IMG/VR virus record: IMGVR_UViG_3300044699_000100
Span: 779-64,778 of that record
DNA length: 64,000 nucleotides
Source: a virus
Direction: 5' to 3' (one strand)
In this document: positions 22 to 64,000 of the stretch, piece by piece
Position numbering within the stretch: the stretch's first letter is position 1
Layout of the letters: every line of letters begins with the position of its first letter
Program-made: the position numbers and the translations under genes
The notes under the pieces: generated by a model
Databases searched by the model: none
Told to the model about the DNA's origin: nothing
Seen by the model: only the letters and a program-made list of their open reading frames with translations

Positions 22-913
22 CGACCTGCTATCGCAGGCGGGAGAGCCACTAAACCTTTTGGTTACATACCTTTTAAGATATGTGTCTTTAGCCCTTAAG
101 CCTTCCTGCCCTTCTAGTATGGTTACCTCTTGCCAAGAGGCACTACATCTAGCCGCGCGGCTAGAGCTTTCTCCTGCGTCCTTAGCTTTTGTTTTACTTA
201 CGAAACCGTTTGTTACTTGCATCGGATAAGACATAGGCATCCTTCAGCCACTAAGTCTTAACGTTCCTGCAAGTCACGGACTAGCCAAGAATTTCTATAG
301 GCGGGGAGCAATCTCCAAATTTAGCCGTTACCTTTGCACTTTAACGAGGCCGGTAAGAGCCCGGAGGATGCCACCGGCATCCTTCACTCGATGGCAACTT
401 GCCACCGGCCTTGAGCAGATCAAGGTTCGCCCGCCACTCCCGTCCTAGGGGTTGCTTGCCGCTTTCGTGGGTGTCCAGAGCCTTCTCCTTAAAGGTTGTC
501 CGCCCAATCGCGTGGAAAGGTCATGCGGTATACGTGCCATGACCTACCGGGCCGGATCAGCTTTCACGCTGTCGATACACCCCGCGAGCTTGCGGCCATG
601 CCGCGCTGCTCCGTCACGTGAGGGCTTAGGCTCCGGCTTCCTTCCGGCTCTCATCCTAGCATGTGGGGAGATGGGCAAACATCAGGGGACATTACCCCCA
701 CGGGTAATGGCCAAGGCCCCCCCACCCCCCGCGCCCCTTCTTAGGTGTTTGGCATATAGAAAATACTAAAAAACTAAAAGTAACATGATTGTTACTCTAA
801 AGTAATTATCACGTAACAATCCACTATTCCCTTGACTTTTCGCCCTAAACACGAGATCACTGGACCACGAAACCACACGACCACTAAATCCCGTTATCAG
901 AAGGCCCACCCAC

Positions 914-3151
914 ATGCCAAAACCCAAGCCCAAATCAAAATATGAAAATATGACGCAAGCGGAGCTTGACGCGCTCCTCAAGAAAATGAAAGCCAAGGAT
1001 GCCGAGACAAGAGAGTCCGCCCGCAAGGAGCTTATTTCGGTCTTTGCTTCTAGGCCCGCCAACTTAGGCTCTGCCGTTGGTGCAGGACTCTCTGCCGGAT
1101 ATAACGTCGCCAGCGCTAAAGACAGCGCGTATCAAAGGTATGTAAAAGAACACTACGGTCCTAATGCTACCTCACATAACTCTGAGCCTATGGCCATGTA
1201 CACCGGCTCTGGTGCAGGGCCTAATTACGCAGGAACATCAAGAGACAGAGCAGGCCCCGGTGCAGGACTAAGCTCTCCTGCCGTGTCCTATGGCGATGCT
1301 TCCGAGCCGACCACCTCTGCCGCACACGAAGCGCTTTATCGAGCAATAAGCGAAGCTGAAGGCACAACGCAACATGGATACAATACAATATACGGGGGAG
1401 GCCAGCGGGACTTGGGTAACATGACCATCAGAGAAGTCATGGACATGCAAAGTAACATGATCAATCAAACCGGGCACTCTCCCGTGGGGAGGTTCCAGAT
1501 TACCAGAGATACACTGGGGAGGCATGCCGGATTACTGGGGATACCCGATACTGCCAAGTTTACGCCCGATATTCAAAACAAGGTAATGCTCTCCATTGCC
1601 GACAAGCAGGGGCTTAAACCCAGTGTATGGGCAGGGTTTAATAATAACCCCGGTGCGTTCGCGCGTGCAAAGCAAGCTTACAGTACAATACAACAAGCCA
1701 CGCCTGCCCAAGCAAGCTATGCGACTTCAGGCTACACTGGTGCTGGTGCCAGCGGTATTACTTATAATATTCGTGACAAGACCAGCGCACAGGGGCTGAC
1801 TTCCGGTTTGATGGGTGCTTTGGAGTCGGCGCAGCAGGCGGCACGTGCCGCAGGGCTGGATCATATTGAAGTTCGTGCCGGTAAGGGGCAAGGGCATCTG
1901 AGCCATCAGCAGGGTACCGAAGCCGATATCGTAGGCTACAACGCCGACGGCTCGCAATGGAGCAAAGCCCAGCGTGTTGCAGTGGCGCAGGGCGCTGCCG
2001 GTGCAGGGGCTAACCGCTTCGGGTTTTACTCAGGGCCGACGCTGCATGTGGGCATGGGTGCCAAGGGGCTGCCGGGCAATGTCGTGTGGAACGACAAGCT
2101 CAGGGGGGTGCCGGGAGTTAACACTTTTGCTCCGGAAGAGCGTGACTTCGTGGGTGCGTTGCGCACCGGCAAGCTAAAGTCCCTCGCTCCTGTTACAGCT
2201 TATGCTCCAACTGTAGCTCTCTCACCTGCACAGCAGGCTGCCGCTCTTCAAGCATCTGGACAAGCTTCTGGCACGACAACTAATACAACACCCGATCCAA
2301 AAGTTGCCCAGATGCAGCGCGACCTAAACTCCAGAGGGGCCAGTCTCGAAGTAGACGGTCTGCGTGGGCCTCTTACCAGAGCCGCAGAACAACAATTCTA
2401 TGGTTCTCCCTCTTCTGTACGCACGCCAAGTATTACTGCGCCTGCTCCTACTACTGGAAATAATTGGTCTTCAGTGCAGGGGCCATATACTAATTCTACT
2501 GGTGGGGCGAACGCTGTTGTTTCCAGTGTAAGAACGCCTAGCTTTACTGCCGCGCCACGATCATATACGTCGGGTCGTGGGGACGAGGGTGCCGGTGTTG
2601 CTTCGCCTCCGTCCATGGGCATCCCACGGCGGGTGGAGACAACCGCTGTAGACGCTTCCGGCTACCCTCCCATATCAAGCGGGTTTACACGTCCAGCTAC
2701 TCCACAAACCCCCTATTACTCCAACCCCTATACCATGGGTACCGGGGGCGCTAATGCGCTTGTTTCGGGACAAGTGGCGCGTACTCCGCAGGCACGTCCT
2801 GCACTACCAAGTGACACACCTACGCCATATCTAAACCAACCATATGCAGCCCCCTCTTGGGGTGCCGTACCGCAAGCCCCCATAATCCCGACAATACCTA
2901 CAACAGTAGCACGCCTGCCGGTAGCTCGTCCTCCGGGGCTACAGTGGTCACAGTTACAACAGTCTGCACCGCCACCTCCTGTGCAAGAAGCCGTGCCGTC
3001 GTTTATCGATAGGCTGAAGAACCTTATAGACATAGACCCGAACAGGGCAAAGACTGCACTGACAAGCCTTGGAAGCGTCCTTAGTGGAGGTAATCAAGGT
3101 GGTTCCTGGCACGCGCGGTGCGGGTGCCAGCTACTCCGGAAGCGGAGGTAA
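914..3151 (+). CDS. Multidomain peptidoglycan hydrolase: lysozyme-like muramidase, M15-type Zn peptidase, PG-binding domain, Pro/Ser/Thr-rich tail
   Basis: AISEAEGTTQHGYNTIYGG...GRFQITRDTL resembles lambda/GH24-like lysozymes. SHQQGTEAD (H-x6-D) plus LHVG resembles M15 peptidases. VAQMQRDLNSRGASLEVDGLRGPLTRAA resembles PG_binding_1. The C-terminus may be frameshifted. Confidence 0.75.
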   Translation: MPKPKPKSKYENMTQAELDALLKKMKAKDAETRESARKELISVFASRPANLGSAVGAGLSAGYNVASAKDSAYQRYVKEHYGPNATSHNSEPMAMYTGSGAGPNYAGTSRDRAGPGAGLSSPAVSYGDASEPTTSAAHEALYRAISEAEGTTQHGYNTIYGGGQRDLGNMTIREVMDMQSNMINQTGHSPVGRFQITRDTLGRHAGLLGIPDTAKFTPDIQNKVMLSIADKQGLKPSVWAGFNNNPGAFARAKQAYSTIQQATPAQASYATSGYTGAGASGITYNIRDKTSAQGLTSGLMGALESAQQAARAAGLDHIEVRAGKGQGHLSHQQGTEADIVGYNADGSQWSKAQRVAVAQGAAGAGANRFGFYSGPTLHVGMGAKGLPGNVVWNDKLRGVPGVNTFAPEERDFVGALRTGKLKSLAPVTAYAPTVALSPAQQAAALQASGQASGTTTNTTPDPKVAQMQRDLNSRGASLEVDGLRGPLTRAAEQQFYGSPSSVRTPSITAPAPTTGNNWSSVQGPYTNSTGGANAVVSSVRTPSFTAAPRSYTSGRGDEGAGVASPPSMGIPRRVETTAVDASGYPPISSGFTRPATPQTPYYSNPYTMGTGGANALVSGQVARTPQARPALPSDTPTPYLNQPYAAPSWGAVPQAPIIPTIPTTVARLPVARPPGLQWSQLQQSAPPPPVQEAVPSFIDRLKNLIDIDPNRAKTALTSLGSVLSGGNQGGSWHARCGCQLLRKRR

Positions 3152-3343
3152 TTACTCCGGTGGCAATTACGGGGGGCAGGGTGGCAGAAGTATAAGCCAA
3201 GGCGTCGGCGGGGCGTATCGTAACCGTTAAAACACCCCTGCAAGCCCCACAAATGCCCGTAGAGGCGTTCCAAACCAAGGGAGGGTCCCCAACAGCCCCC
3301 ACAGCCAGAACCGCTGTACGGGCATTTATGGAGGTCCACTAAG

Positions 3344-3560
3344 ATGGCACTTACCGTAGGTTCGCTTTTTACCGCTCATAGTCCGTGCTGCTGGTCATCG
3401 GTATTCTACTATGGCTGGCGTTCTATGTCTTGCGGCAATTTCCTCCTCCGGAGCCGCTGGGACGGATAATACAAGTATAATCGTGGTGATCGCGGTGTTG
3501 ATACTTGTGGTGTTTTTGCTTAATTTGGTGGGTATTGGTGGCGGTGTTCGTATAAGTTAG
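3344..3560 (+). CDS. Small two-TM membrane protein, holin candidate (frameshifted)
   Basis: Manual translation joins VLLVIGILLWLAFYVLRQFPPPEPLGRIIQV and IVVIAVLILVVFLLNLVGIG. It directly follows the hydrolase gene. Confidence 0.5.
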
Positions 3561-3576
3561 ATAACCTTCAGAGGTA

Positions 3577-3902
3577 ATGTTAGGGGCAAAAATGGACAAG
3601 CCTGATCATCTAAAGCTGGTCGGCATGATCCTGCCTGCCGATGCACAGGAGATACGCTCTTGCATCGATGTGCTGGAGCGTGCACTTGCCGAAGCCAGAG
3701 AAGGCAGAGTGCTTGCCGTAGCCATATCTATGGTCCGGTGCAGGGTAATAAAATCGGGTTTTATTCTTCTGAGACCCGACGAAATTCCGCAAAGCTGCTG
3801 GCGTCGTCACAGCTTACGGTATGGCGGCTATCCGAGAGTATGTGGCATGACATGAGCGTGGAGACGGAGGAGTATCCCGATCTTCCTCCTGATAGTGGAT
3901 AA
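3577..3902 (+). CDS. Hypothetical protein (two fragments)
   Basis: ORFs 3577..3855 and 3660..3902 join across one shift. It follows a palindrome carrying an SD. Confidence 0.45.
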
Positions 3903-3917
3903 TTATGGGAGAATACG

Positions 3918-5928
3918 ATGCAGAACAAGCTTGCCGTAGCATTAGCGCTTTTTGCTGCTCCCGCACTAGCACAAGAAAGCACCACCACGGAGTGTCTTAC
4001 CAACACCGATGGGGTAGAGGTGTGCGTCGATACGTATATCTACTTTAAAGCTACGCCACCCGTTGAGCCACCTATCGAACCACCTATCGAGCCACCCGTC
4101 CGGATACCTGCGGGGGCCGTGCTGCCACAGGACTTCGATCTGGAGGCGTTCGATGCCAGCGTCGGCACGCTGCGGTTCATTGCGCCGAACGGTGACGACG
4201 GCGCTGCCTGTACGGAAGCTGCTCCTTGTCGTTCTCTGGGCAGGGCTTACAGTGTCGCCACCAACGGTGACGCCATCGTAGCCCGAGGCGGCATTTACCG
4301 GGATAACGATATTTACAATGCAAAGAAGCCTGACCATCAGCAATTATCCCGGCGAAATTCCCGAGTTCCGGGGCTCACAGGACGTGACTGCCGCGTTTAA
4401 CGCGGGCAAGGCCGATGGTAATTATCGCTACATTACTTACACGGAACAACCAATCACTAATGGCTTCGGGGTTAATCTCTCAGGGCGGACAGAATATCGC
4501 AGGCGGTGTCAACGGCGTCGGGATGCTGGTCGATCAGATGTGGATCGGCAATACTGAGCTTAAACAAGTCAAGAACAAGAACGAGATTGCCGAGGGTAAG
4601 TTCTGGATCGATGCCGCCTAATAACCGCGCCTACTTAACAACCGCCGATGCAGCCAAAAGCGCTATCGAGATATCCAAGACCGATAATTTCATGGACGTT
4701 GTAGCAAAGGACATAACCCTGCGTGGGTTTAAGATCACGCGCTACTCGCCGTCGGGCGGGCGACTATGGGATGATCGATGTGAATTTAGTGGACGACTTT
4801 ACGTGTAACAACGTCGAAATGTCGGACATCAGCACGGTCGCGTTGTTCCTCAATGGCACCTGGCTCCGACCAAGTAAACAACAGCGTCATTGACCATTGT
4901 TCTGTCCTGCGCACCGGCTGGATGCCGTTTACTGGGAAGTTATAACTTTCACACCAAGATCGACGGCTTGAAGTCTGCCAACAACGATCCGTTTGACGAG
5001 TTTACCGGCAGTCCCGGAAGTGGCAATAAATTTACGCATTGCCACTACATGGACGTGACCAACAGCGAGATCACAGACAATAAATCCCATGGCCTGTGGT
5101 TCGATCAGTCCTGCTACGATGCAGTGGTTGCCGGAAATATCATTACCGGTAACAGCGGCACCGGCATTTTCTGGGAGCTTTCCGACGAGTTGTTGATGAT
5201 CAATAACCTGCTCAAGTCGGGCGGCTCCAATGCTGCAAAAGTTAGGTGGTGGCAGCACTGGCATCAGGATGATCAACAACACCATTGTCGGCGGGCCGGG
5301 TGTGGTGGGAGTTTACACCGACAAGCGCTCGTCGCCCAACTGTGCCGACGAGACTGCTTCGCCCAACCCGTCCGCCGAGTGGACACGTTGCGCCGGGCTT
5401 GGCACGCTGTCCAGCGACCGTATTCCGCCTAGTCTATGGAAGGACACTATCGACTGGCTGCCGAGGATCGATGAGGCTTATAACAATATCATCGCGTGGC
5501 CTGACCGGGTGGACGACCTGTGTGGCGGTCTCGAAGTGGCGTTGTGCATCACCGATAATAATTCCGGCACGTCGGTGACGCCGCAGTCGATCATTCACAA
5601 GGCCTGAGCCGGGGCGCGATATTCCTAGAGACTTATATGGACTACAACGTCTACCAGTCCGATGGGCCCAATCGTAGGGCTACCCGATCCTGCCAATAAC
5701 AACACCATCCGCCACAACGATACAGCGTCTGTCGCGGCAGCGCTCGCTGCCGCTCCATACAATCTCAACGGACTGGAGACCCATAGCCAATCCGACGATG
5801 GTCTCGTAGACGCCGAAGGGACACCGACTAACGCACTGCAGCATAACACCGCCAAGCCGATCCCCAGCGATCCGTTGATCAATAAGTTTTTACCGGAGGG
5901 TTTGAAGCACTACGGTGTGACTTTTTAG
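3918..5928 (+). CDS. Signal-peptide-bearing right-handed parallel beta-helix protein (DUF1565/pectate-lyase-like), frameshifted
   Basis: N-terminus MQNKLAVALALFAAPALA, EPPI linker, GDDGAACTEAAPCRSLGRAYSVATNGDAIVARGGIY (DUF1565-like) and PbH1-like NSEITDNKSHGLWFDQ...GNIITGNSGTGIFWELS. Spread over at least 5 ORF fragments. Confidence 0.65.
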
Positions 5929-5961
5929 TGGAATAATTAATAAAACAAAGGAGCATATGAG

Positions 5962-6108
5962 ATGCCGTTGTCCAAGGGTAAGTCCAACAAGGACGTAAGT
6001 GCGAATATCCGCACGCTTAAGAAAGAAGGTTATCCACAAAAACAAAGTGTTGCCATCGCTTTGCAGAAAGCGGGGAAGTCCAATAAAAATAAAAAATCTA
6101 AGAAATAA
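5962..6108 (+). CDS. Small basic conserved phage protein (48 aa)
   Basis: MPLSKGKSNKDVSANIRTLKKEGYPQKQSVAIALQKAGKS with an AAGGAG SD. Resembles a common small phage protein type. Confidence 0.65.
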   Translation: MPLSKGKSNKDVSANIRTLKKEGYPQKQSVAIALQKAGKSNKNKKSKK

Positions 6109-7568
6109 TTAAGTCCACCCCGCAGCCGTTACGGGCTCCTTGGAGGAGCTATTAAAGTTATTTTGTCCGAGATGCCGCATGACCATGCCGGTGACCATCC
6201 CTCCGTGTGCTCCAAGGCACACATATTGCAGTGCGTCAGCCACATGAGAAAACTCATTCTTGTCGGGGCTGGGCTTGCGCTGGCCTGCTTTAGTCTTGCC
6301 GAAACGATAGCCACCGCCCATGGCTCTAACCAGAGTGGGGCAACGGCTTCTGTCGAAGACAATAGCTGGACCGCCATCTCGTTGACTAAGCAGCATCGAC
6401 TCTACTGCTCTTACGCGCGGATCGATATCGTTGGTAGGGGCTGGGAAGCACATGAAACCTTCCCGTTTCAGTACATCAAAGCTGGTCTCTTCGTAGATAC
6501 TATCTTTGCTCCTCCCGGCTGGGTCCCCGATTATAGCGACCTTCTTGCCGAGGTAACGTGTATCTAGCATCTTTGGCCGTAAAGACCGTTGCACGTGCTG
6601 TTCCAGCCCGATATCTTCCGCGCTTACTTCCTCAAGCACCAGAAGCCTGCCTTTGTGGTCGATCTGGCAGATTACCGACCACGGGTCGCGCCCGAAGTCC
6701 TGACCAATCAAGATCGGATGCCCTTGCACCGGCTCCAAGCTGTCCTACCGACATGAAACGTGGACTTGAAGCTCTCGCCAAAGACGGCTGATCCAGAAGG
6801 GTCGTCGCCGTATTTTGCGTGCACATAGCGCTGGCACCAGCCGGGGGAGTTCGATCTGATAAATCTTTCGTAGTAAGTGCGTCCCTGCGCTAACCTTCGA
6901 GGGTCATTTTCCTTAAGCTTAAGCGTTTCGGGGGTTTGATGCAGCCATTGCAGATTTTCAGCATTGTCCGACATGCCGCCCGGTTGGATGAAAACTTGAA
7001 AAGTCCGGTGGGGTGTCTGTCTCCATGAGCTTTGTACCAAGGAGAGTTCTCGCTTGGCAGGTTGGTATCGATAATAATCCCCATCCACGTGCAGCCGCCC
7101 ATCGTTGCAGAGGGATATCTTCCGCATCTACCAGCTAATGGCGATACCAAGTCCACCGATAGCTCGATGGCCTCCGAGAGCCACGCACCGGTCAACTGTA
7201 AAGACAGTAGTCTTCTTTGGTCTTCCGGGTCGTCCAGTGGTATAAACAGCCACTCTGATCTTACATCGCCTATATTTATGTATAGTGTACTATTACTTAC
7301 TTTCCATTCAGCTATTTCTCTGAACCAACTCATGCAGTCTTTAAGTATAGTGTCTTTTAACTGTTGAAGCGTGCCTCTTACTACCTGCAAACCTAGTATA
7401 GCGCAACCCGTCTTCTGCAGGTATTTGTTCACACGCTCTTCTGAATAATTCAAGTATACATGCAGTAGTCTTTCCTGAGCCGACCGGTCCAGCGGCGATC
7501 CTGCCAAAGCTCTGTGACCGCATGAACTTTGCGAGCGTGGGCGGCGGGGTGTAATTTATGCTCGTCAT
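6109..7568 (-). CDS. terL: Terminase large subunit (frameshifted into 4 fragments)
   Basis: Walker A GPVGSGKT, Walker B region LTGAWLSEAIE, nuclease motifs IGQDFG, IIGDPAG and SHVADALQY. Confidence 0.9.
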
Positions 7569-7569
7569 G

Positions 7570-8044
7570 TTATCCCCCCTCGTGGTCTATTACCTTTGAA
7601 GGTAAGTTTTTATCGAAGCTCATCTTGTCGCCGCCGCCTAGATTTATGGTAACACTGAAGCCCGCGCCGGTAGACAGACTAGGGCTATCGCTTTTATCCA
7701 ACCCCGCAATCCTGCTGATCATCTTGGCGAGTTCGACCTTCGCGGGGAGTGCCTCGTTCTGGTCGTGCAGGCGCGCGTGTCCTTCTGTAAGCCATTGCTC
7801 GATGATGGCTCCAGCCTTGAGCTTGGTGCGCTCTGCCGTATTGGTTGCCGACTGCCAAGCAAGTATTTCTTGCTCCAATAGTGTCATAAACCTTGGGTTT
7901 TGAAGTATAGCGTCCCATTCTTCTTGGTTTATACTATATAGCTTGCGCACCTTCTTCTGCAGAGAGATGGTCTATCGCTATTTCTCTTGCGAGTTGGACT
8001 AGCATTATATCGCGAAGTGGCTCCTTTACTGCTATAGCGTCCAT
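7570..8044 (-). CDS. terS: Terminase small subunit (probable)
   Basis: Directly upstream of terL. ORF 7570..7950 extends across one shift to an ATG at 8044 with a GAGGAGG SD. Confidence 0.6.
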
Positions 8045-8118
8045 TGTTACCTCCTCGTCACTTTAGCGTAACTAAATAGTAACTTGTAACCTCTTGTCCT
8101 ATATAGTATTAGGCGGGA

Positions 8119-10241: not shown

Positions 10242-10269
10242 CTATTTGGGTTCTGTCTAGGTTCTATGT

Positions 10270-10422
10270 ATGTCCCAGTGGATAACTATGGGGATAATTT
10301 TAGTTTTCTTTCTGGCTGGCCCTCTGGCTGCCTGTACGAGTCGCTATGAATTTGAGTTTAACGTGCTGCAGCCTAAACCCGTTGTTGTTCCGGCTTATCC
10401 GTCACCAGTTGTGATAAAATAA
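10270..10422 (+). CDS. Small predicted lipoprotein (50 aa)
   Basis: Manual translation MSQWITMGIILVFFLAGPLAAC-TSRYEFEFNVLQPKPVVVPAYPSPVVIK: hydrophobic leader, LAAC lipobox, Pro-rich mature part. Confidence 0.55.
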   Translation: MSQWITMGIILVFFLAGPLAACTSRYEFEFNVLQPKPVVVPAYPSPVVIK

Positions 10423-10437
10423 CCCTTGGAGGTAATG

Positions 10438-10668
10438 ATGCCAGAAGTAAAAAGATACACGAGTAAAGTCAAGTCCAGCGGGCCGCTCCCTTCGAACGCG
10501 CGGGCGCATGGCGGGTCTGGGCATATGGCCAGTAAGTCAGGTGCTGGCCCTCAGAGTCCGGGTGGCACTACCGGGTCTGCGCATAACGCGCCCAGCAGGG
10601 CATATGTTCATGGTGGCTCCGGTCATATGTCGGGTAAGAATACCGCCAAGCCCAAGAAACCCATTTAA
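10438..10668 (+). CDS. Small Gly/Ser/His-rich basic protein
   Basis: GGAGGT SD inside the 10420 palindrome. The motif HGGSGHM occurs twice. Confidence 0.6.
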   Translation: MPEVKRYTSKVKSSGPLPSNARAHGGSGHMASKSGAGPQSPGGTTGSAHNAPSRAYVHGGSGHMSGKNTAKPKKPI

Positions 10669-10895
10669 TGGGTGTTGCCGACGATGCGTTGATACGGGCT
10701 GCTGCCGATCTTGCAAGGGCTTCTCCGGAAAATTGGAGAAAGTTCCTTTCTGCGATGGCTCTCAGGTCTGATCAGATGCGCGAACTTTTAGTTAGTTCCC
10801 CCATCGAGACCCTTCAGGGGCACCAAGGACATGCGCGCGAAATCGCTCATCTCCTGAAGACGCTCAGAACTGTGTGTCGTTGGCGGATAAACTGA
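10668..10895 (+). CDS. Hypothetical protein
   Basis: Start overlaps the upstream stop, within the head operon. Confidence 0.55.
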   Translation: MGVADDALIRAAADLARASPENWRKFLSAMALRSDQMRELLVSSPIETLQGHQGHAREIAHLLKTLRTVCRWRIN

Positions 10896-10907
10896 AAGGG
10901 AAGTGAT

Positions 10908-55911: not shown

Positions 55912-55988
55912 GGGTGGGTTACCTTTCTAGGTTGTTACCTCTGAAGGTTATTTAACTTCAGAGCACAGCTTAGCTGTGCTCTGTGTGG

Positions 55989-56231
55989 TTAGATTTCGTT
56001 GTAGATGTCCTCATCGGGGTTAGCGTGCCTGTGGTCGTATAATTGGGCGCGTGCACACAGGCCGAGTAACGCAACGCTGAACTCAAAGCCCCAGTGGTCC
56101 CTGTCACTTGGTATCCAGTTAAGCTCCAAATCAAAGAGCGCACCTTTACGCCAGTAAAGCTGGACTTCTACGGACTTGTTCTTCGCAACCGTCCAGTCAC
56201 GGTCGAAGATGTCATGAGATGTTATAAGCAT
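55989..56231 (-). CDS. Hypothetical protein
   Basis: Start follows the 56238 palindrome. Confidence 0.5.
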   Translation of the reverse strand: MLITSHDIFDRDWTVAKNKSVEVQLYWRKGALFDLELNWIPSDRDHWGFEFSVALLGLCARAQLYDHRHANPDEDIYNEI

Positions 56232-56245
56232 TGTAGGTTACCTTT

Positions 56246-56659
56246 CTAGGTTATGGGTTGTTCGATGCCGTGTTCCTGCAGCAGATGATGGATCAACGCC
56301 AGCGCATGCAGCAGACCGTCGCAGTTTACTCTTACTGTTCCTAATTTGTGTAACATTCTTCCTGATTTATGTGGCCATAAGTCAGTAAGCTGCGACCCCT
56401 CACCTGCTCTAGGATGGCGTAGTCTAGAAGGTTCTAAACTACGCCATATAAAGAAGGTATAGTCTGGCGAAATACCGATCTCCAGCTTGCCATCCCAACA
56501 AGCACGATAAGCACCACTCGCCATCGTATGCTCGTTAGGGAAGCCGAACTTAAGCTCGGCATGTTTATTTTGCACGTATTCACTCCATCCTTTTATCCAT
56601 GTCTCCATATCTTCTGGAGACCAAGGCCCAAAAAATTCATTAGAGGTACTCGTCATCAT
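56246..56659 (-). CDS. Hypothetical protein
   Basis: Packed between neighbours and ends in a palindrome. Confidence 0.5.
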   Translation of the reverse strand: MMTSTSNEFFGPWSPEDMETWIKGWSEYVQNKHAELKFGFPNEHTMASGAYRACWDGKLEIGISPDYTFFIWRSLEPSRLRHPRAGEGSQLTDLWPHKSGRMLHKLGTVRVNCDGLLHALALIHHLLQEHGIEQPIT

Positions 56660-56990
56660 GTCCGCATGTAGGGCAAGGTCCATCCGTGTGAATTTCCGCA
56701 AGATCAACCTCCCTGTCACCGTTGATGTTGTCAGATATAGTCATGCTAAGCTTCGGACGTGAACGGTCCTGAAGTAGCATTGCAGTCGATAGCAGTCCCT
56801 TGGACATGCGCGCTGCAGCAACCTTCAGAAGCTCCTCCTTGTCTGCTCTCAGAGCATCGTCAAAGTTGACTTGCAGTTCGATGAAGTATCTTGTCGCGGC
56901 CATGCTTTCTTCCTTCCATAGTTGGAGTTGACGATAGAGGTCCCGTGGTAGGTTAGGCGGCACAGGTATATGTGTAGCTTTACTACCCAT
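56640..56990 (-). CDS. Hypothetical protein with C-terminal CPTC
   Basis: ATG directly after the GGAGGT-bearing palindrome at 56992. Confidence 0.5.
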   Translation of the reverse strand: MGSKATHIPVPPNLPRDLYRQLQLWKEESMAATRYFIELQVNFDDALRADKEELLKVAAARMSKGLLSTAMLLQDRSRPKLSMTISDNINGDREVDLAEIHTDGPCPTCGHDDEYL

Positions 56991-56991
56991 A

Positions 56992-57558
56992 TTACCTCCG
57001 AAGGTTACCTGCCGGAAGCAACCCCAAGCATATCCTGAACACAGGGTCGTTCTCACATTTGTGCAGCCAGTCGTCCTTAAGCTCGATGCCCTCGGGACCG
57101 ACGAAGTAGAACTCCCACTTACGTTCATGCGCGATGTGCTTGATAATGGGATCGGCAGTGTTATCGCTTACCATGAGCAAGCCAGCGACAACGTTCTTGA
57201 GCTTGGGAGCTTTCGGCACATTCAGTATCCAATATTGGCACCAGCCTAACTTGCTACCGTCTCCTAGATAACCTTCATTTTGGACCAGATGAATGAAAGG
57301 CCGGTCCAGCGAAGTGTTAATGCTTTTAAGATACTTGAGCTTGCTCTCTCCAAGCCGGTTGACCCAATTCTCATCTTCGTAACGCTTGACAACGGCAATG
57401 CCAGTGTCGAGAAACTTTCTGGTCTCGTTGGTAAGTGTTACAAGAAAGTTCTCGGCATCGCTACGATAGTTGCGCGCACGTTCCTCATATTGATGGATGG
57501 CGCTCCAAACTTTACTGCGTGCTTTTTCCAAGGCTTTTATCCCGTTTATGTCTGTCAT
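56992..57558 (-). CDS. Hypothetical protein
   Basis: Intact 188 aa. Its stop is the end of a palindrome. Confidence 0.6.
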   Translation of the reverse strand: MTDINGIKALEKARSKVWSAIHQYEERARNYRSDAENFLVTLTNETRKFLDTGIAVVKRYEDENWVNRLGESKLKYLKSINTSLDRPFIHLVQNEGYLGDGSKLGWCQYWILNVPKAPKLKNVVAGLLMVSDNTADPIIKHIAHERKWEFYFVGPEGIELKDDWLHKCENDPVFRICLGLLPAGNLRR

Positions 57559-57641
57559 GGTGGGTGGCTCTCTTGCTTTCTGGTTGGCTGGTTAGGGGTT
57601 ACCCCCCGGATCAAGTCCGAGGGGGTTATTACCTTCGAAGG

Positions 57642-58757
57642 TTAGTTCCGGTTGATCTCGTTCATGAGGTGAGCGTTCGTCATCGCCCACTTATGGAACG
57701 CGGGAGCCATAGCCAGCTTATAGTCACGCTTGACTGCAGCCCTAGCGAACGTCGCCGCAAACTCCTTCGGCAGACGGTTGATGTATTTGATCACGGCTTC
57801 CGCGTCCTTGGCGTTCACCTCATGTGCGAGATTATAGCACACGAGCATCACGGCATCCGGTTTGTCGGACACTTTCACTCCCATCGGGTCCTTGATGATG
57901 TCCGCATAGTCCGGTATCTCATTCTCCAGACGAATGAAATTCATCATCTGCCCACAGGCTTCCGGCCCGATACGCCCGGAAATCTCAGTAAGCGCCGCAT
58001 TGTCGTCAACCGGCATACCCATCTGTATGAGAAGCTGGATATACTTGTCAGCTTTCACCAGCGAGCGTGGCGTGCAATACGGCCCTTGCTTCTTGGGCAG
58101 TTCGTCAGGCCAGACAATCTGCGGGTTCTTGCTCGCGAAGATGATGGTCGTGCCTCTGACATGGTTGTCTTCAGCCCAGTCAACCCAGCTACGCAAGTCC
58201 CCAGTGATCTCGATCTGGCAACGGCGGTTGATCAGATGATCAAGCTCCTTCGTTGATCCCGAACGATGCTCTGCAGTGTTGCCCGCCATCCACACCACCC
58301 AATTCGGCGGCAAGCGATGCGGCCCAAAGCGCCCTGAGTGCGCACCTTCTCCCAGAACTTTCTTGATATCGACATCGGCCTTGTCGGCCTCATCGATAAA
58401 GATAATACCACCGTCCGGGTATTCATCCAGAAACTTCCCGCCCTCGTCAATGGACGTGGCATCGGTCTTCCAGAAGAAGGGGTTAGTGAACACCATGATG
58501 GAACGCTCGGCAGTTGTGCCATCCGGGGCGGATGAATGCGTGTGCTTCGGTATGCCAAAGCCCACGGTATCGCCCGGCGTGAGATTGCCACCGTTGATCA
58601 CGACCAGCCCGATATGCTTGCCGAGTTTCTTCTTGATAACTTCGGGAGCTTGCTCGACTGTCGTCGTCTTGCCGAGACCGGGAGGTGACGTGAAATAGTA
58701 ACAGTCCCCACTCAAGAAATAAATGGGGAGGCGTGCAAGGATATCTCGTAGGATCAT
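57642..58757 (-). CDS. MoxR-like AAA+ ATPase
   Basis: Walker A SPPGLGKTT, Walker B IIFIDEAD, VWMAGN and arginine finger LINRRC, TPRS. Confidence 0.9.
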   Translation of the reverse strand: MILRDILARLPIYFLSGDCYYFTSPPGLGKTTTVEQAPEVIKKKLGKHIGLVVINGGNLTPGDTVGFGIPKHTHSSAPDGTTAERSIMVFTNPFFWKTDATSIDEGGKFLDEYPDGGIIFIDEADKADVDIKKVLGEGAHSGRFGPHRLPPNWVVWMAGNTAEHRSGSTKELDHLINRRCQIEITGDLRSWVDWAEDNHVRGTTIIFASKNPQIVWPDELPKKQGPYCTPRSLVKADKYIQLLIQMGMPVDDNAALTEISGRIGPEACGQMMNFIRLENEIPDYADIIKDPMGVKVSDKPDAVMLVCYNLAHEVNAKDAEAVIKYINRLPKEFAATFARAAVKRDYKLAMAPAFHKWAMTNAHLMNEINRN

Positions 58758-58931
58758 GTGTAGCTCTCTCTTGTGTTACGTGAAGACGTTACCTTCACGG
58801 GTAATGGGTGGGACGGCTTAGTTCGAGCAAAAGCCGTTGTGGGTCAAGCGGTTAGTGTTCTTATTGTTAACGGGTATTGTAACATAGTGGTAACCGTTTG
58901 TCAAGCCACTATATGTAGTAGGTCGTGTTCG

Positions 58932-59156
58932 TTATTCTGCAGGAGGTGCAAAGAACACGGAGAACTCGTATTTTTCGTCAGTCATACTACTAAGCGCAAA
59001 CGACGCGCCGTCAGTAAACTCAAAGACCAGCGTGCCTTTAGCTTCGTATTTACTGAACGATGTCACGTCCGTTATCGTGATGTTGGCGATGGTTTTATTC
59101 CGCAAAAAGCCAGTAAGCTCCTGACTGCAGCGCTCGTCCTTTGATTTGTAGATCAT
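58932..59156 (-). CDS. Hypothetical protein
   Basis: ATG 4 nt after the GGAGGGT-bearing palindrome at 59161. Confidence 0.5.
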   Translation of the reverse strand: MIYKSKDERCSQELTGFLRNKTIANITITDVTSFSKYEAKGTLVFEFTDGASFALSSMTDEKYEFSVFFAPPAE

Positions 59157-59160
59157 GATG

Positions 59161-59481
59161 TTACCCTCCAAGGTAATCTGTGATTTCGGCAGCCAACTTG
59201 TAGCTGTCGTCTCGCGTGCCACGATCATTAAAACTAAACCGTGGCTTGCTACCGAGTGCGACCACTACACGCCTGAGAAGCTGCTCAGCCTCCATTACAC
59301 GTCGAAACATAAAGGTATAGTAGGTTCTTTCATGCTGCGTGAGAAACACCATCTGATCGACAAGCTCAGATATGTCATTACGCAGCTTATTCTCAAGTCC
59401 TACATGCGTAGTAGGCGTGCCGTGTTGGTCTTTGATTTTCTGTAACTCTTTCATGTGATGGCTGATGAACGACTTGATCAT
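59161..59481 (-). CDS. Hypothetical protein
   Basis: Bounded by palindromes at both ends. Confidence 0.55.
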   Translation of the reverse strand: MIKSFISHHMKELQKIKDQHGTPTTHVGLENKLRNDISELVDQMVFLTQHERTYYTFMFRRVMEAEQLLRRVVVALGSKPRFSFNDRGTRDDSYKLAAEITDYLGG

Positions 59482-59735
59482 GATGTCATACCTTTAGAGG
59501 TAATGAGACTGTCAATCAGCTTCCAGCTTTTCGGCATGGGGTAGCTGGTTGTGTCGATTACTGGCGCGATGCTCATGCGCGTGCGTCGCACTTCGTCGTC
59601 AATCAGCGCAAGAAATTCACGCACGACGTGATCGGTGTTCTTGGTTGACGTGTCCTTGGCGTAGTCCTGCAGCAGAGCACGAATGTCCTTGCGCAAGCGT
59701 CTTTCTGCTGGTGACTTGGTGGTTGGTTTGGTCAT
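59478..59735 (-). CDS. Hypothetical protein
   Basis: AGAGGT SD, packed ORF. Confidence 0.5.
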   Translation of the reverse strand: MTKPTTKSPAERRLRKDIRALLQDYAKDTSTKNTDHVVREFLALIDDEVRRTRMSIAPVIDTTSYPMPKSWKLIDSLITSKGMTS

Positions 59736-59974
59736 CTTTCTACCTCTACTAGCTTATCGTTATACTCGGCAAGCACAGGCTCTTTCGTTGCCCGCAGCAT
59801 GGACTTGAGCGTTTTACGTAGCTCTTTGGGAGTTTCGGCAAAGACCGGCTCTGGCGTCTTTGTCCACGTATATGGTATGCTATCGGTAGGCTTAGTATAA
59901 AAGCACTCGTGTATGGCGTAGCTCGCGCCCCATACAGGATGCATGGTGCGCAATACTCTGTGGTTCCAGTGCAT
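59732..59974 (-). CDS. Small conserved phage protein (WNHRV...YAIHECFY type)
   Basis: Motif is common in phage early genes. ATG lies 4 nt after the 59979 palindrome. Confidence 0.6.
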   Translation of the reverse strand: MHWNHRVLRTMHPVWGASYAIHECFYTKPTDSIPYTWTKTPEPVFAETPKELRKTLKSMLRATKEPVLAEYNDKLVEVER

Positions 59975-60404
59975 GATGTTACCTTCGAAGGTTACTTAGC
60001 TTCATAGCACAGCTAGTTGTGCTATGAGCGGTTAGAGCTTGCATGCTTCCATGAACTTAGTGCGGTTAAAATTAGCACTATTTCTGGCACACAGATCAGC
60101 CATGTCATGGCATATGACTATGTATGCGTTATGTGTAAGAAACTTACGTGTCCTACACATAAGCTTTGCCAGTTCTACGAAGTGTTTCTTGGTCATGTGG
60201 GTGGTTACCTTTGAAGGTTAGAGTTAGTGCCAGCGTTCGTAGGCAGCGATCAGGAGCACTATAATTATCGCAAATACCAAGGGTCCTCCAAAATCATTGG
60301 CGTGGGACTCGTATCTTTGGTTTTGCTCCACAGCAAGCTGCCACTCGCTAAAATAATCATCGTCCATGGGTAAGTCCTCTTTCTGGTTTGGTTACTTTCG
60401 AAGG

Positions 60405-60773
60405 TTAGAGTGGGATGGCGTCGGCAGGGGTTGCTGGCACGCTAGCGTTAGGCATTACGAGACCGGCACCAACGATCAACTTGTCCATCCACTCCCACTG
60501 CTTAGGGGACAAGCGCACCGTGTCGTATTGATTGGCACGAGCGAACGTTTGCGCTAAGAACGTTTGCGCCGCTGGCGTAAGCTTGCGCGTCCTAAGCACC
60601 GCCTCAATCAGCGGCTTAAGCGTGTCGCTGTCAAACTCTGCAGCGTTGAAGGTTTTGGTTGTGGTTGCTGCAGGAGCCACGGGCGCAAGGTGAGTGCGCA
60701 ATTCGTCCCAGCTTGTATTCGTCTGCTGGAGCAGCGAATTGATAGCGTTGAGTAGTTCGGCAGTGACTGGCAT
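60405..60773 (-). CDS. Hypothetical protein
   Basis: Bounded by palindrome variants. C-terminal RLSPKQWEWMDKL. Confidence 0.55.
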   Translation of the reverse strand: MPVTAELLNAINSLLQQTNTSWDELRTHLAPVAPAATTTKTFNAAEFDSDTLKPLIEAVLRTRKLTPAAQTFLAQTFARANQYDTVRLSPKQWEWMDKLIVGAGLVMPNASVPATPADAIPL

Positions 60774-61386
60774 TGTGTTACCTCGAAGGTAATGTGGTGG
60801 ATATGACGTTTCTGACAGACATTACCTCGCAGGTAACGTTCTGTGGTCGAGCTGAGCAAAAAAGTTTGATGCATAGTGCGGAGCGCTTTACGCAGGAAGC
60901 GTGAATTTTAACGCAAATGAGGGCTGCAGCAGAGTTGTCCCCTACTGCAGCCCCCACTCTCGCTCACTTTACGCTTACGCTACGCTACGCTACGCTAGTG
61001 TGAAGGACGGCAGCAAGCTGCCGTCAATCACTTCGTTGAGTGACCTTTCAACTGCCCCTGCCAAGGCTCAGGCTCTGATCTGATGGCAGGTTTGCGACGG
61101 CTAGTAATCACTCGTGAGTTCGTGGCGCGGTATTAATTACCGCGCAAACACTGGCACTGGATAAACACAGTAACTAAACCATGCTGCACTTGGGCGCGTC
61201 CATACAGTTGGTTCATAAAGAGAACTAGACCAAGTTTTTGTCCAGTAATTATAGTTGTAAATGAAGCCATCTTTCAACATATCGTCCTCCGCAGTTGGGA
61301 TTACCTTTGAAGGTTACATGTCTACGGCATGGCTACCGGTTATCGGTAGGGCATTGGTTGGGTAGAATGTAACCTTCAAAGGTAAT

Positions 61387-61419
61387 AGGGGTGCAGTCCT
61401 TGAACTGCACCCCTGTTTT
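61387..61419. terminator. GC-rich hairpin with a T-run
   Basis: AGGGGTGCAGT-cctt-gAACTGCACCCCT-GTTTTT, just past the stop of the 61435 gene. Confidence 0.6.
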
Positions 61420-61434
61420 TAGTGGGTAGGTGGA

Positions 61435-62198
61435 TTAGATAAGACCGGCTTCCCGCAGCTTCGCCTCCTGAGCGCGATAGGCGTCAAGCTCGGCAGCCAG
61501 CGTCATCTTGGCAGACCATTGCTGCAGTTGCTCCACTGCGTTGGTGATCTCCACGTCCTGACAAGACAGGCCGTCCTTACGCTCGCCACTTATCAGGTCC
61601 GTGAGAAGCTCGGTGATGTGATCAACCACGTTCTGGACAGTCTTCTCCGGCTTGTCCTTCGGCTTCATTGCCTCGATGATCTCGGCATCCGTGGGAGAAG
61701 TAACGTCCGGCGTGTTCGGATCAGCCTTCCAATCAACCGCCATGCGCGCGGCATTGACGTATGCAGCATAGACGCTCTGCATCTTGGTCTCGGCAGCGAT
61801 CTGCTCATGATAGAGCGCAACTACCCTATCCATGAACTCTCCGGGTCGAAGTCCTTGATCTGACCAAGGTCATATCCACGCTTGAGCTTCGACACTTGCG
61901 CGGCACGCCCCTCCTTGCCCTGCGAGTGCACGCCCTTCTTGACGCGCTGGTCCCAATACGCGCCGTAAATGGCGTGCATCGCCTTCTTGTCGGCTTCCAG
62001 GTCGATTGCGCCGTCCTTCGATGCGCGCACGACTTCGAGCAACAGCTTCGGCAGAGCATCGGCACCGATGGCAGTGTCGCGACCAAGCGCACGCGCCGTC
62101 TTCACAATCTTGTCGAAGCGCGTATCGTTGACGTTGTTACCTGCTTCATTACCTTCAGGGGTAACGTCGTTGGTGTCGGCAGTGTTAAGGTCAGTCAT
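61435..62198 (-). CDS. Helical hypothetical protein (one shift)
   Basis: ORFs 61821..62204 and 61435..61833 join at DFDP/MDRVV. Confidence 0.6.
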
Positions 62199-62326
62199 TC
62201 TCATTCTCCCGTTTTGGGCTAAGGCCCGGTTTGCGCGTGAGTGCGCTGGTCACTCTGCATCATATGCAGAACTAATCACAGCCACAAGCGGCTGTGAATT
62301 TGTTTGGTTACCTTTGGAGGTAACGT

Positions 62327-62621
62327 TTAGTCGGCAACCTCCCATTTCATGTCATCGCGGTAGTCTATGCTCTCCCAACCATCGTATTCGTGAATACGGT
62401 AGTGAGCGCCCGATCTTAACGTGATCACGCTCAGGTCGCCCTTGTCGGGCATTGCCTCGACAATCCGCACGAGCAACGGGTCAGTGCGGTCGATATCGTA
62501 GTGGGTATACGGTATCGTTGTCGTTCTCGATTGGGAGCCCACGCGCGGCAGCGAGCACGTTGTAACAGTCGCGCGGCAGACTGAAGCCGCCGTAGTTGGT
62601 GTTGAGAACGATCTTTGTCAT
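62327..62621 (-). CDS. Small conserved phage protein (frameshifted)
   Basis: MTKIVLNTNYGGFSL...DIDRTDPLLVRIVE...YRIHEYDGWESI, a widespread phage family pattern. Confidence 0.7.
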
Positions 62622-62648
62622 GCATTACCTTCTGAGGTTAGCGTTAAG

Positions 62649-62945
62649 TTATTTGCCCCAGCGCAGCTTACTGCGCTTGTCTTGAAATTCACGTTCTACC
62701 TCTTCCTGATACGCGAGCGCGTCGTAGTCTGGCATGGGCTCAGGTATCGTAGAGTTACCTTTCAAGGTAACTAATTCCTGCTCGGCAGCGAGCAACTGTG
62801 CAAACCTAGCGTGGCGTAGTTCGATGGTAACGCTGAGTTTGCCACAATTAGAACACTTTTTACGCCGCAGCGTCGTGGTCTCGGCGTGTCGTGTTCCAGT
62901 GACCTTAAGCTGTTGTCCGCACTCGTGACAGTGGTTAGCCTTCAT
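62649..62945 (-). CDS. Zn-ribbon protein (NrdR N-terminal-like)
   Basis: CHECG...LKVTGTR...RRKKCSNCG...TIE. Confidence 0.65.
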   Translation of the reverse strand: MKANHCHECGQQLKVTGTRHAETTTLRRKKCSNCGKLSVTIELRHARFAQLLAAEQELVTLKGNSTIPEPMPDYDALAYQEEVEREFQDKRSKLRWGK

Positions 62946-63002
62946 AATTACAACTCCCGCTTGAGTAACCTTAAAGTAACATAGGGAGTTAGCGCGGTCA
63001 AC

Positions 63003-63208
63003 GGCCACATATGGCCTTTTAATGATTTAGGGATTAATTCCTAGCAATTATAACCCCTTGATATCATTGAGGAAAATGGAATTCTATAATCTCTAGTTTA
63101 TTTTCATACTTCTCAACAAAAAAGTAGGCCACATATGGCCTATCGAGTGTTGCAACTTTACAAGGGCAGTTGCATAGTTGTAACAGGGGACTAAGGCCAC
63201 ATATGGCC
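63003..63208. promoter_or_regulatory. Three copies of GGCCACATATGGCC in an AT-rich intergenic region
   Basis: Exact 14-mers at 63003, 63127 and 63195. Confidence 0.7.
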
Positions 63209-63465
63209 GTGTTTTATATTTTTCGTATTAATTATAGATTATAGAATATAGATATATCTAAAAAAGAAAGGGGCATTTTAAGACCTTCAACGCCCTTTTC
63301 TGCTGCAGTATCAAAGGCTTGCGAGCGTCGGCTCACCGTCTTGCTGGAACAAACACTCGCAAGCCCTTGTGTTATATGACGATTACCCCCAATTCCCCTG
63401 CAGGATCAACCACTTAGGTCGCTTCACCTAACCTAAGTGGTTGAAGAAACGCTCGCAAGTGCGCG

Positions 63466-63786
63466 TTAGATGCGCGGCGGCTTGCCAATCCAAAGCCGAC
63501 GCTCGCACGTCCCGGCACCCTTGGCTTTCCGCGCGCCGCGAGCATATTGCGCCGACGATACCTCGCGCTCGGACGTTATGACCTCCCTGCCGTAAATCAG
63601 CTTCTTGGTGACCGTGCGGGACTTGGTAAGCCGCGTGACCTTCACGCCAGCGCACAACACCGCAAGCTCGGACGACGTGATCTTGGGCGCGGAGATATAG
63701 ACCGGCTTGAGATATTCGGCGTTTCCAAGCTCACGACGCTGAGTTGTGGCTCGCGCAACCTTAGCGAGTAGGGCTCTGTTAGCCAT
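63466..63786 (-). CDS. Basic hypothetical early protein
   Basis: GAAAGG SD. A palindrome lies 21 nt upstream. Confidence 0.5.
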   Translation of the reverse strand: MANRALLAKVARATTQRRELGNAEYLKPVYISAPKITSSELAVLCAGVKVTRLTKSRTVTKKLIYGREVITSEREVSSAQYARGARKAKGAGTCERRLWIGKPPRI

Positions 63787-63979
63787 CTAAGTAACCTTTC
63801 TGTTACATTACCTTTGGAGGTAACAGGCCAGCTAGCTGGCCTGTTGATAACTATTCGCGTTCTGCGCAGTGTGGATACACTACGTAATAGGCGATTAGAT
63901 ACTTCCACTCCGAGCCGTGGCCATACACGATAGGCTCGCTCAGCATTGCGTAGAAGGTCATGTTGCTTTCTCCTGTTAC

Positions 63980-64000
63980 CTCCAAAGGTAAAGGGCTCTC
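63980..64000. repeat. 21-nt terminal overlap, identical to 1-21
   Basis: Exact match to the window start. Confidence 0.9.

Follow-up and report, generated by a model that had tools for sequence, protein, structure and literature searches.

Dispersed 16-bp palindromes in a family of soil phages: a genome-wide array of putative docking sites for a phage-encoded protein

Background

The 64,000-nucleotide stretch of phage DNA analyzed here (hereinafter, the window; C1:779-64778 of the 65,490-bp IMG/VR virus record IMGVR_UViG_3300044699_000100) raises the question why a phage genome carries tens of copies of one 16-bp palindrome, TWACC-N6-GGTWA, both between and inside its genes. Analysis of the window and of related phages shows that these sites are selected at the nucleotide level, evenly spread, phage-specific and conserved in the arms only, and that their sequence changes between related phages. 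The explanation that we favor, with a probability of about one half, is that the palindromes form a genome-wide array of putative double-stranded docking sites for a single sequence-specific, phage-encoded protein, probably a dimer. The capsid protein of this phage is common to about 600 IMG/VR contigs, and the size of this soil-phage family allows the motif to be followed as its arms change. The present analysis adds quantitative evidence of DNA-level selection inside essential genes and of even spacing, along with negative results for ParB, a phage RNA polymerase and a conserved helix-turn-helix (HTH) protein.

Number, selection and spacing of the sites

The window contains exactly 52 matches to TWACC-N6-GGTWA, whereas 100 dinucleotide-preserving shuffles averaged 0.16 and never exceeded 2; this bears out, site by site, the count made by eye in an earlier sequence-only reading of this DNA. 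The two ends of the record overlap by about 1.5 kb, and the repeat unit is about 63,979 bp, that is, the window represents approximately one genome unit; therefore, the 52 sites are all distinct. The higher density in the early region noticed in the same reading is real, with 32 copies from 41754 onward versus 20 before 38779, and all the near-matches that it listed, six degenerate copies and four 15-nt forms, were recovered by a scan that tolerated at most two arm mismatches.

Gene-context statistics were computed for RHph_TM27A, one of the closest cultured relatives (the Rhizobium phages RHph_TM27A, TM27B, TM29 and TM3_14A; 67% capsid identity), which is cleanly annotated, because apparent 1-base assembly insertions in the window (see below) render the context derived from its open reading frames (ORFs) approximate. 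The genes of RHph_TM27A contain 26 strict copies of the palindrome, compared to a mean of 1.67 and a maximum of 6 in 300 within-gene synonymous codon shuffles. The majority of these copies (16 of the 26) are read as GTT-ACC-NNN-NNN-GGT-AAC, which encodes V-T-x-x-G-N, and the rest are in the other two frames. The copy at 11794..11809 of the window (+ strand), inside a scaffold-like gene upstream of the major capsid gene, was compared with its counterpart by alignment to RHph_TM27A: residue 295 in the window is aligned with residue 269 in RHph_TM27A, in the same frame, and the palindrome is present in both phages despite the differing surrounding peptide. In the primase-helicase gene, there are three copies in the window and three in the RHph_TM27A orthologue, at nearby, non-identical residues; being equal in number but shifted, these copies indicate turnover with the density maintained.

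The sites are spaced more evenly than expected at random in positions 1-39500 of the window (coefficient of variation [CV] of 0.58, P = 0.009), in its early arm with the 15-nt forms included (CV 0.64, P = 0.004) and across the entire RHph_TM27A genome (CV 0.62, P = 1e-4), where the largest gap is 2.9 kb (P = 7.5e-4). Part of this regularity is due to the gene lengths; long genes, such as those for the giant virion protein and the primase, are filled with internal copies every 0.8-2.7 kb.

Conservation among related phages and near absence from hosts

The relaxed pattern TTAC-N6..9-GTAA is found in 13-69 copies in 14 of the 17 complete relatives, including the cultured RHph_TM27A. The counts are 18-69 for the 11 IMG/VR relatives that are complete or nearly so and 47 for RHph_TM27A, with 0-6 for the reversed control, and 13-44 on four further phage contigs from bacterial assemblies. 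The three motif-poor genomes, two of which may form one clade, are the complete relatives G013 and G009, with no copies above the control, and a mosaic Bradyrhizobium phage that has a different replication module and 7 copies. Arm variants in the family include TTACCC-N3, TTACCG-N3, TTACGG-N3, TTACT-N5/6, GTTACA-N5 and TTACAACGTTGTAA. From phage to phage, the outer TTAC/GTAA is kept and the inner bases of the two arms change together, the copies being identical within one genome and different between genomes.

Two of the checks named in the sequence-only reading, conservation in related phages and depletion in the host, came out in its favor. Sites persist at orthologous positions in the best available pair of relatives, G006 and G022c21, which share 72.6% nucleotide identity over 35 kb and retain 6 of 10 and 6 of 7 mapped sites. 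In the retained sites, both 5-bp arms are 100% conserved, the six central bases drift without constraint or complementarity, and the identity of the flanks is 66-69%. With respect to the hosts, the motif is nearly absent from the candidate chromosomes: the four host-type genomes searched (24 Mb) contain 24 exact TTACC-N6-GGTAA matches, 16 of which are on contigs carrying the phage capsid gene and 7 on one other contig of unknown nature, leaving 1 elsewhere. Given this near absence, we rejected the possibility that the palindrome is a host transcription-factor or regulon site.

Site anatomy and gene junctions

When read on the local coding strand, the consensus of the sites is T-W-A-C-C-T-Y-Y-R-R-A-G-G-T-A-A, with a 5-N6-5 layout, a YYRR center that has a pyrimidine-purine step in the middle, and symmetric flanks, A/G at position 0 and T/C at position 17. 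The search pattern itself dictates arm positions 1, 3-5, 12-14 and 16; of 51 sites, 45 have T at position 6 and 48 have A at position 11, and the center is variable. Beyond positions 0 and 17, there is no conserved flanking signal within 20 nt on either side and no partner element at a fixed distance.

About 23 of the 52 sites in the window lie 1-23 nt, mostly no more than 9 nt, upstream of a start codon, and at these sites, the 3' arm forms GGAGGT, GAGGT or AAGGT at Shine-Dalgarno distance. The 52 sites of the form T[AT]AC-N7/8-GT[AT]A in RHph_TM27A comprise 12 start-adjacent ones (within 12 nt), where by our own arithmetic about 1 is expected, 12 otherwise intergenic or unassigned, 27 intragenic and 1 doubtful. 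The two W positions had been taken to vary independently, which was used as an argument for DNA binding; this argument falls because W follows the coding and start-codon context. On the coding strand, TAACC forms the 5' arm of 16 of the 23 start-adjacent sites of the window versus 1 of 19 intragenic ones; in RHph_TM27A, the pairing of TAACC with GGTAA is confined to start-adjacent sites (4 of 12); and GGTTA is used at 33500 and 55090, both clear cases where a trailing TAA would be an in-frame stop. At several junctions, the stop codon of the upstream ORF overlaps the motif, as the leading TAA at 10420, 41754, 42867 and 57629 and as the trailing TAA at 27852. The motif appears to be shaped so as to be cheap to place at gene junctions. 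The junction role is secondary: the intergenic gaps are only 20-30 nt long, so that any 16-bp site between genes overlaps the Shine-Dalgarno sequence and adjoins the start, and relatives with arms that do not resemble a Shine-Dalgarno sequence (L029 and L035) still place copies directly against the ATG.

One junction can be followed through the family. The copy at 13222..13237 (+ strand) follows a terminator-like GC hairpin located downstream of the capsid gene and precedes the next start codon by 4 nt. The same post-capsid position is occupied in 13 relatives (L005, L012, L016, L018, L020, L022, L023, L025, L037, L039, L051, L052 and L067), each of which uses its own variant of the motif. A terminator scan of the window does not single out the palindromes; only 2 of the 6 pairs in the stem are G-C and no T-run follows, so these are not intrinsic terminators.

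Duplex site or folded structure

The pairing statistics of the arms bear on the question whether the palindrome acts as a duplex or in a folded form. In the window, arm pair 2/15 is TA in 25 sites, AA in 19, TT in 7 and AT in 1, and arm pair 6/11 is TA in 44, CA in 5, TG in 2 and CG in 1; the changes in both pairs are uncompensated. At pair 7/10, T.G combinations outnumber C.A at start-adjacent sites (13 versus 2), an excess explained by the Shine-Dalgarno purines, and not at intragenic sites (2 versus 4). Among single-mismatch variants pooled over the relatives with TTAC-type arms, about 24 are wobble-compatible and 17 of the C.A type on the capsid-coding strand, which is not a significant difference; this is a hand tally of the per-locus counts limited to TTAC-type arms, given that unrelated GC-rich arms dominated the pooled output of the script. 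As RNA, the hairpins taken in isolation are weak, at -2.7 to -4.0 kcal/mol. Thus, the compensatory or wobble substitutions on the transcribed strand that would mark a conserved RNA hairpin are not seen in the window or in the relatives compared, nor is there a G.U excess at intragenic sites, in agreement with the sequence-only reading, which had argued against such a hairpin. Taken together, the patterns in the arms, the center and the orthologous sites fit two separately read half-sites with a free spacer, as for a dimer that binds duplex DNA. The same reading had proposed that the palindrome is the site of a dimeric DNA-binding protein; the site side of this proposal stands, in that the 5-N6-5 layout and the symmetric flanks belong to a real, selected, phage-specific signal, but no binding protein was found.

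The candidate reader and competing explanations

We infer that a protein recognizes the palindromes as duplex DNA and that the array has an organizing or regulatory function for the entire genome. In the proposed dimer, each subunit would recognize one TTACC(T) half-site, with the two half-sites about one helical turn apart and the center only loosely constrained (YYRR). Selection would keep about one site per 1-3 kb throughout the genome, preferentially in the short intergenic gaps, where the motif could serve both as the TAA stop of one gene and as the Shine-Dalgarno element of the following one, its upstream arm being loosened to TAACC; long genes would carry the sites within their coding sequence. 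The role of the array might be silencing or roadblock, compaction, or marking of the phage DNA; roadblocking, segregation and self-marking, as suggested in the sequence-only reading, are conjectures.

Several observations weigh against docking of a dimer on duplex DNA. The obvious classes of reader were not found: a six-frame search of the whole record with ParB_N (PF02195) gave no match at E values up to 1, with a control that was positive in 11 of 14 genomes; the only HTH-like ORF, an HTH_7-like one at 49610-50140, is not conserved in RHph_TM27A or any phage record and was rejected as the reader; and about 30 early ORFs have no informative Pfam match. The placement of the sites varies with respect to the three good sigma70-like early promoters, located near 63.25, 61.26 and 58.89 kb, so that a classical operator role is not evident. 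The length of the motif varies between genomes, from 14 to 17 bp in total, and within them, with N7 and N8 forms (15 versus 16 bp) mixed at 14:32 in RHph_TM27A, 19:49 in G008, 5:10 in L012 and 8:3 in L084, and N7-N9 in L060; such variation is easier to accommodate by a hairpin with a variable loop than by a rigid dimer. Furthermore, in L014, L035 and L084, the post-capsid copy is the apex of a perfect hairpin of 12-15 bp, at a place taken in other relatives by a simple GC-rich terminator hairpin, so that a folded form is at least tolerated in these three phages. The C repressor of Rhizobium phage 16-3 binds operators with 4- and 6-bp spacers, and given this tolerance of spacer change, the length variation does not exclude a dimer.

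The wider search yielded a lead rather than a reader. In Pfam, PHROG and NCBIfam scans of about 50 ORFs, the only DNA-binding candidate is a zinc-ribbon ORF at 62649-63008, with a match below the cut-off. When all genes of RHph_TM27A were profiled over 16 relatives, only two proved to occur in each of the 14 motif-rich genomes and in none of the 3 motif-poor ones. One encodes a divergent AAA+ ATPase (57642..58757, - strand), and its partner (54496..55911, - strand) encodes a DUF2201 protein with a putative metallopeptidase and a VWA-like domain (PF13203, PF09967). The ATPase gene, a small ORF and the DUF2201 gene form a module that is found in the same order in N4-like phages of Pseudomonas, Vibrio, Erwinia, Acinetobacter, Klebsiella and Salmonella (in LUZ7, L227 13950-16706). 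Because LUZ7 has the ATPase/DUF2201 pair without a dispersed palindrome, we regard the pair as a lead, not a finding. The DUF2201 protein is labeled 'HNH endonuclease' by PHROGs and in several records, which Pfam does not support. Two other candidates were tried and rejected: a fast-evolving family of 230-300 aa encoded just upstream of PolA, which is present in 13 of the 14 motif-rich genomes and absent from the window in a permissive six-frame hidden Markov model search, and a Pam3 gp34-like protein (39602-40741), which is also present in motif-free relatives and comes with no fold or family information. It is conceivable, if rather doubtful, that the reader is a protein of a new kind that lacks ParB, HTH and polymerase signatures and may be tied to the ATPase/DUF2201 module, and that the array is an evenly spaced lattice that organizes, marks or primes the phage chromosome. 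If so, related phages would rewrite a genome-scale cis-code in step, which would be testable in RHph_TM27A.

Among the alternatives to the duplex docking array, we rank second, as possible but on the whole unlikely, a short single-stranded DNA hairpin (stem of 5-7 bp, loop of 3-6 nt) that would be read on either strand by a phage protein, for example, the DUF927 primase-helicase for priming or loading on the lagging strand; the even spacing of 1-3 kb would then reflect initiation on the scale of Okazaki fragments. Such hairpins have a precedent in the RepB' primase of RSF1010, which starts at the ssiA and ssiB hairpins, and several features of the array are compatible with them: an outer TTAC/GTAA kept family-wide with an inner stem that changes in step, the same hairpin on both strands in line with the symmetric pattern of the loop, the even spacing itself, and a primase-helicase in the 16 relatives with this replication module. 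However, the stems are short, AT-rich and weak in energy; only 5 bp per arm are constrained in RHph_TM27A and in the G006/G022c21 pair, with positions 6/11 often mismatched; and the motif-free G013 and G009 encode the primase-helicase as well. The in-step change of the arms, moreover, is equally expected of a dimeric duplex reader with altered specificity, and this, together with the known tolerance to spacer length, is why the hairpin comes after the duplex site. The gene-junction evidence brings in another candidate, an mRNA element, be it a Shine-Dalgarno sequence with an upstream anti-Shine-Dalgarno-like arm that would mediate translational coupling or repression, a RegA-like or coat-protein-like repressor site, or a nuclease site for early-gene silencing. 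The start-adjacent sites with their Shine-Dalgarno-like 3' arms in the window, their excess in RHph_TM27A, the T.G bias at pair 7/10 next to starts together with the hairpin-weakening TAACC variant found there, and the five overlapping stop codons all speak for it. Nevertheless, an mRNA role appears improbable given that 27 of the 52 sites in RHph_TM27A are intragenic and occur in all three frames, that no wobble asymmetry is seen at intragenic sites, that L029 and L035 maintain the ATG link with arms of another kind, and that the short gene gaps would force both the Shine-Dalgarno overlap and the start adjacency on any 16-bp site.

Even less probable, in our estimate, are recombination junctions or mobile boundary elements that would shuffle cassettes between co-infecting relatives, in the manner of the T4-type PeSL or the lambdoid boundary sequences, and would be homogenized by gene conversion. 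This would account for the bracketing of nearly all small early genes by copies of the palindrome, for an early-gene content that is almost wholly different between relatives next to a flanking core that is kept, and for the identity of the copies within, and not between, genomes. It leaves unexplained the copies inside conserved essential genes and the even spacing in long ones, and it is also disfavored by the survival of orthologous sites, conserved in their arms alone, between genomes that share 72% nucleotide identity; recombination breakpoints could not be mapped because the best pair of relatives is only 72.6% identical. Finally, transcription signals, whether hairpin promoters of the N4 virion RNA polymerase (vRNAP) type, promoters for another phage polymerase or sigma factor, or terminators, strike us as highly unlikely. 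The N4 early promoters belong to a similar size class (14-17 nt, stem of 5-7, loop of 3-5), the ATPase/DUF2201 module is common to N4-like phages, and the giant virion protein of the window faintly matches the N-terminal part of the vRNAP PHROG (E = 1e-5). As an N4-type polymerase, this protein was rejected: its PHROG matches are of the DarB-like, polyvalent and lysozyme types, and a phmmer search of PDB returned only a portal-associated domain and pyrophosphatase-like segments. No T7-like polymerase domain (PF00940) was detected in six frames, in a search that was likewise negative in all control genomes, and the RNAPII subunits of LUZ7 and part of the vRNAP had no tblastn match at E 0.1 in the window, RHph_TM27A, G007 or G008. 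Nor would promoters or terminators be expected at 52 sites, many inside late genes, with no partner element at a fixed distance and no U-tract after them.

Genome organization and location of the sites

The + strand of the window encodes, between 0.9 and 36.3 kb, the structural proteins, including the portal, the capsid protein (12116-13177), a collagen-like fiber and the giant virion protein, which is DarB-like/polyvalent and includes a pyrophosphatase-like domain. Small early genes and the replication module occupy the - strand between 64 and 36.4 kb; the module consists of the AAA+ ATPase, the DUF2201 VWA/metallopeptidase protein, a family A polymerase, a RecB-like nuclease, a VRR-NUC homolog, an SNF2 helicase and the DUF927 primase-helicase. 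By comparison with RHph_TM27A, the genes for terminase, portal, PolA (the DNA polymerase), SNF2 helicase and the giant virion protein are each split into 2-6 ORF pieces. The overlapping copies at the ends of the record differ at 12 gap positions and show 0 substitutions, and single bases at 6745/6748, 7003, 7034, 7386, 7950/7952, 8619 and 8822 are missing from short-read contigs of four independent soil metagenomes; these extra-base positions (6745-8822) coincide with the frame breaks in terminase and portal. We therefore read the ORF breaks in the window as probable 1-base assembly insertions, not as biology. Some of the 15-nt palindromes of the window could likewise be sequencing errors; in the clean RHph_TM27A genome, such forms are genuine (14 of 46 TTAC..GTAA sites).

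The structural arm (+ strand, 692..35372) contains 17 exact 16-bp matches with a mean gap of about 2 kb, which start at 692, 3562, 7590, 10420, 11794, 13222, 17439, 18098, 20332, 23746, 24299, 27852, 30545, 32153, 33500, 34869 and 35357. Three more (36951, 37785 and 38764; 36951..38779) are inside the DUF927 primase-helicase gene (36368-39457, - strand). The early/replication arm (- strand, 41754..63991) contains 32 exact matches with a mean gap of about 0.7 kb. The first half of these starts at 41754, 42867, 44420, 44753, 45128, 47993, 48670, 49420, 50147, 50531, 51062, 51537, 52827, 53656, 54285 and 55090, and the second half at 55935, 56238, 56992, 57629, 58789, 59161, 59979, 60205, 61301, 61370, 62149, 62308, 62625, 62755, 63808 and 63976. 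From the mismatch scan, the four 15-nt forms, which have intact 6-nt arms and a 3-nt center, start at 42408, 47207, 60778 and 60822 (42408..60836), and the six degenerate copies, with 1-2 arm mismatches, start at 8518, 30467, 39994, 55919, 59488 and 60392 (8518..60407). Two neighborhoods are worth describing. Along the - strand at 61241-61414, a terminator-like hairpin (61414-61387) is followed by palindromes at 61385-61370 and 61316-61301 and then by a near-consensus sigma70-like promoter, TTGAAA-18-TATAAT (61277-61248). Tandem Repeats Finder reports arrays with periods of 36 nt and 18 nt at 51552-51905 and 52540-52680, in a stretch flagged earlier as TIGR-Tas-like guide arrays; the palindromes at 51537, 52827 and 53656 bracket these repeats. 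In RHph_TM27A, the palindromes are present, and no TIGR-Tas-like guide-array system is annotated.

In addition to the cultured Rhizobium phages, the relatives include contigs of about 60 kb in assemblies of Bradyrhizobium isolates and in Xanthobacteraceae and Pseudolabrys metagenome-assembled genomes (MAGs), and the host is probably within Hyphomicrobiales. A search for additional relatives with the PolA protein of RHph_TM27A as the sole query yielded a single locus. The sequencing runs that contain the phage are soil DNA metagenomes only, with 0 RNA runs. Within a 465-kb contig of a Pseudolabrys MAG (G003:C4, about 22-106 kb; L089, L090 and L222-L225), a related phage genome occurs twice in tandem, its period being about 61.9 kb; this may reflect integration, a concatemer or an assembly artefact. 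Among the window ORFs scanned, none was recognized as having a repressor or integrase domain. The RHph_TM27A record carries attL/attR misc_features, and its EVB29_077 (L085 42248-45331), labeled 'putative integrase', aligns along its length with the DUF927 primase-helicase of the window; the temperate annotation of RHph_TM27A appears doubtful.

Implications

Palindromes dispersed at a density of about one per kilobase are emerging in many unrelated phage lineages, the Cluster O mycobacteriophages among them. The cultured member RHph_TM27A, which grows on Rhizobium phaseoli N831, provides an experimentally accessible system for finding the reader and mutating the sites. For genome annotation, the sites are of use in that they predict gene starts and explain odd V-T-x-x-G-N peptides. 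Recoding of such a phage in an engineering project would destroy the array, and this may matter.

Comparison with known systems

The best functional analogy is to the networks of parS/ParB, KorB-OB, Noc-NBS, SlmA-SBS and MatP-matS, in which tens of dispersed palindromes of 12-16 bp are read by a dimeric protein that organizes or regulates the replicon. The array shares with these a dispersed palindromic site of 14-16 bp; unlike them, it comes with no encoded ParB_N, and scanning of roughly 50 ORFs revealed no homolog of the other readers. The hairpin promoters of the N4 vRNAP, which act as folded DNA, are short palindromes of similar size as well. However, N4 has three of these, for early genes only, and encodes the polymerase, whereas here 52 sites are spread genome-wide, including the insides of capsid-module, primase and polymerase genes, and no RNA polymerase was detected.

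The stoperators of Cluster A mycobacteriophages are asymmetric 13-mers that are oriented with transcription and bound by the monomeric immunity repressor (L5 gp71-type) of temperate phages (PMC9283540, PMC6550527). As in that case, there are many short sites, largely at gene junctions, with sequences that diverge between related phages, in the stoperators together with the reader. In contrast to the stoperators, the sites described here are palindromic and half of them are inside genes, their sole asymmetry being the W at position 2 or 15, which follows the start/stop context; also, no repressor or integrase was recognized among the ORFs scanned. The start-associated sequences (SAS) and extended SAS (ESAS) of Cluster K are asymmetric, have one orientation, and are located nearly all 3-7 bp upstream of starts and in the right arm only (PMC3203893). 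A subset of our sites resembles the SAS in being located 1-9 nt upstream of starts, containing a Shine-Dalgarno core, sometimes including the upstream stop, and being concentrated in the non-structural arm; by contrast, the motif is palindromic, often occurs within genes and in the structural arm, and is start-adjacent in only 12 of 52 cases in RHph_TM27A and about 23 of 52 in the window.

The closest counterpart is found in the Cluster O mycobacteriophages (Corndog and relatives), which have more than 30 copies per genome of a 17-bp palindrome, TGTTCGG-N3-CCGAACA; of the 34 copies in Corndog, 14 separate ORFs, 10 are close to gene starts and 10 are within ORFs, with no clear orientation relative to transcription and no function or reader assigned (PMC4351075). 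Thus, the motif, which the sequence-only reading did not recognize, does have a precedent in kind, with a similar copy number (>30) and the same intergenic and intragenic spread (PMC4351075). The two arrays have in common tens of copies of one inverted repeat (here 52) with near-invariant arms and a variable center, the location of the copies both between and inside ORFs throughout the genome (here, in the window and in RHph_TM27A), and conservation among related phages (here, in 14 of 17 complete relatives). They differ in that the present palindrome has an unrelated sequence and belongs to another lineage, the Rhizobiales-type soil phages, has shorter arms, of 5-6 bp, and a spacer of 3-6 nt, varies in length within a single genome, merges with the stop codon and the Shine-Dalgarno sequence at gene junctions, and can be followed across a large family whose arm variants change in step. 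The array in this family of soil phages is another case of dispersed palindromes of the Cluster O type, a descriptive class and not a homology family.

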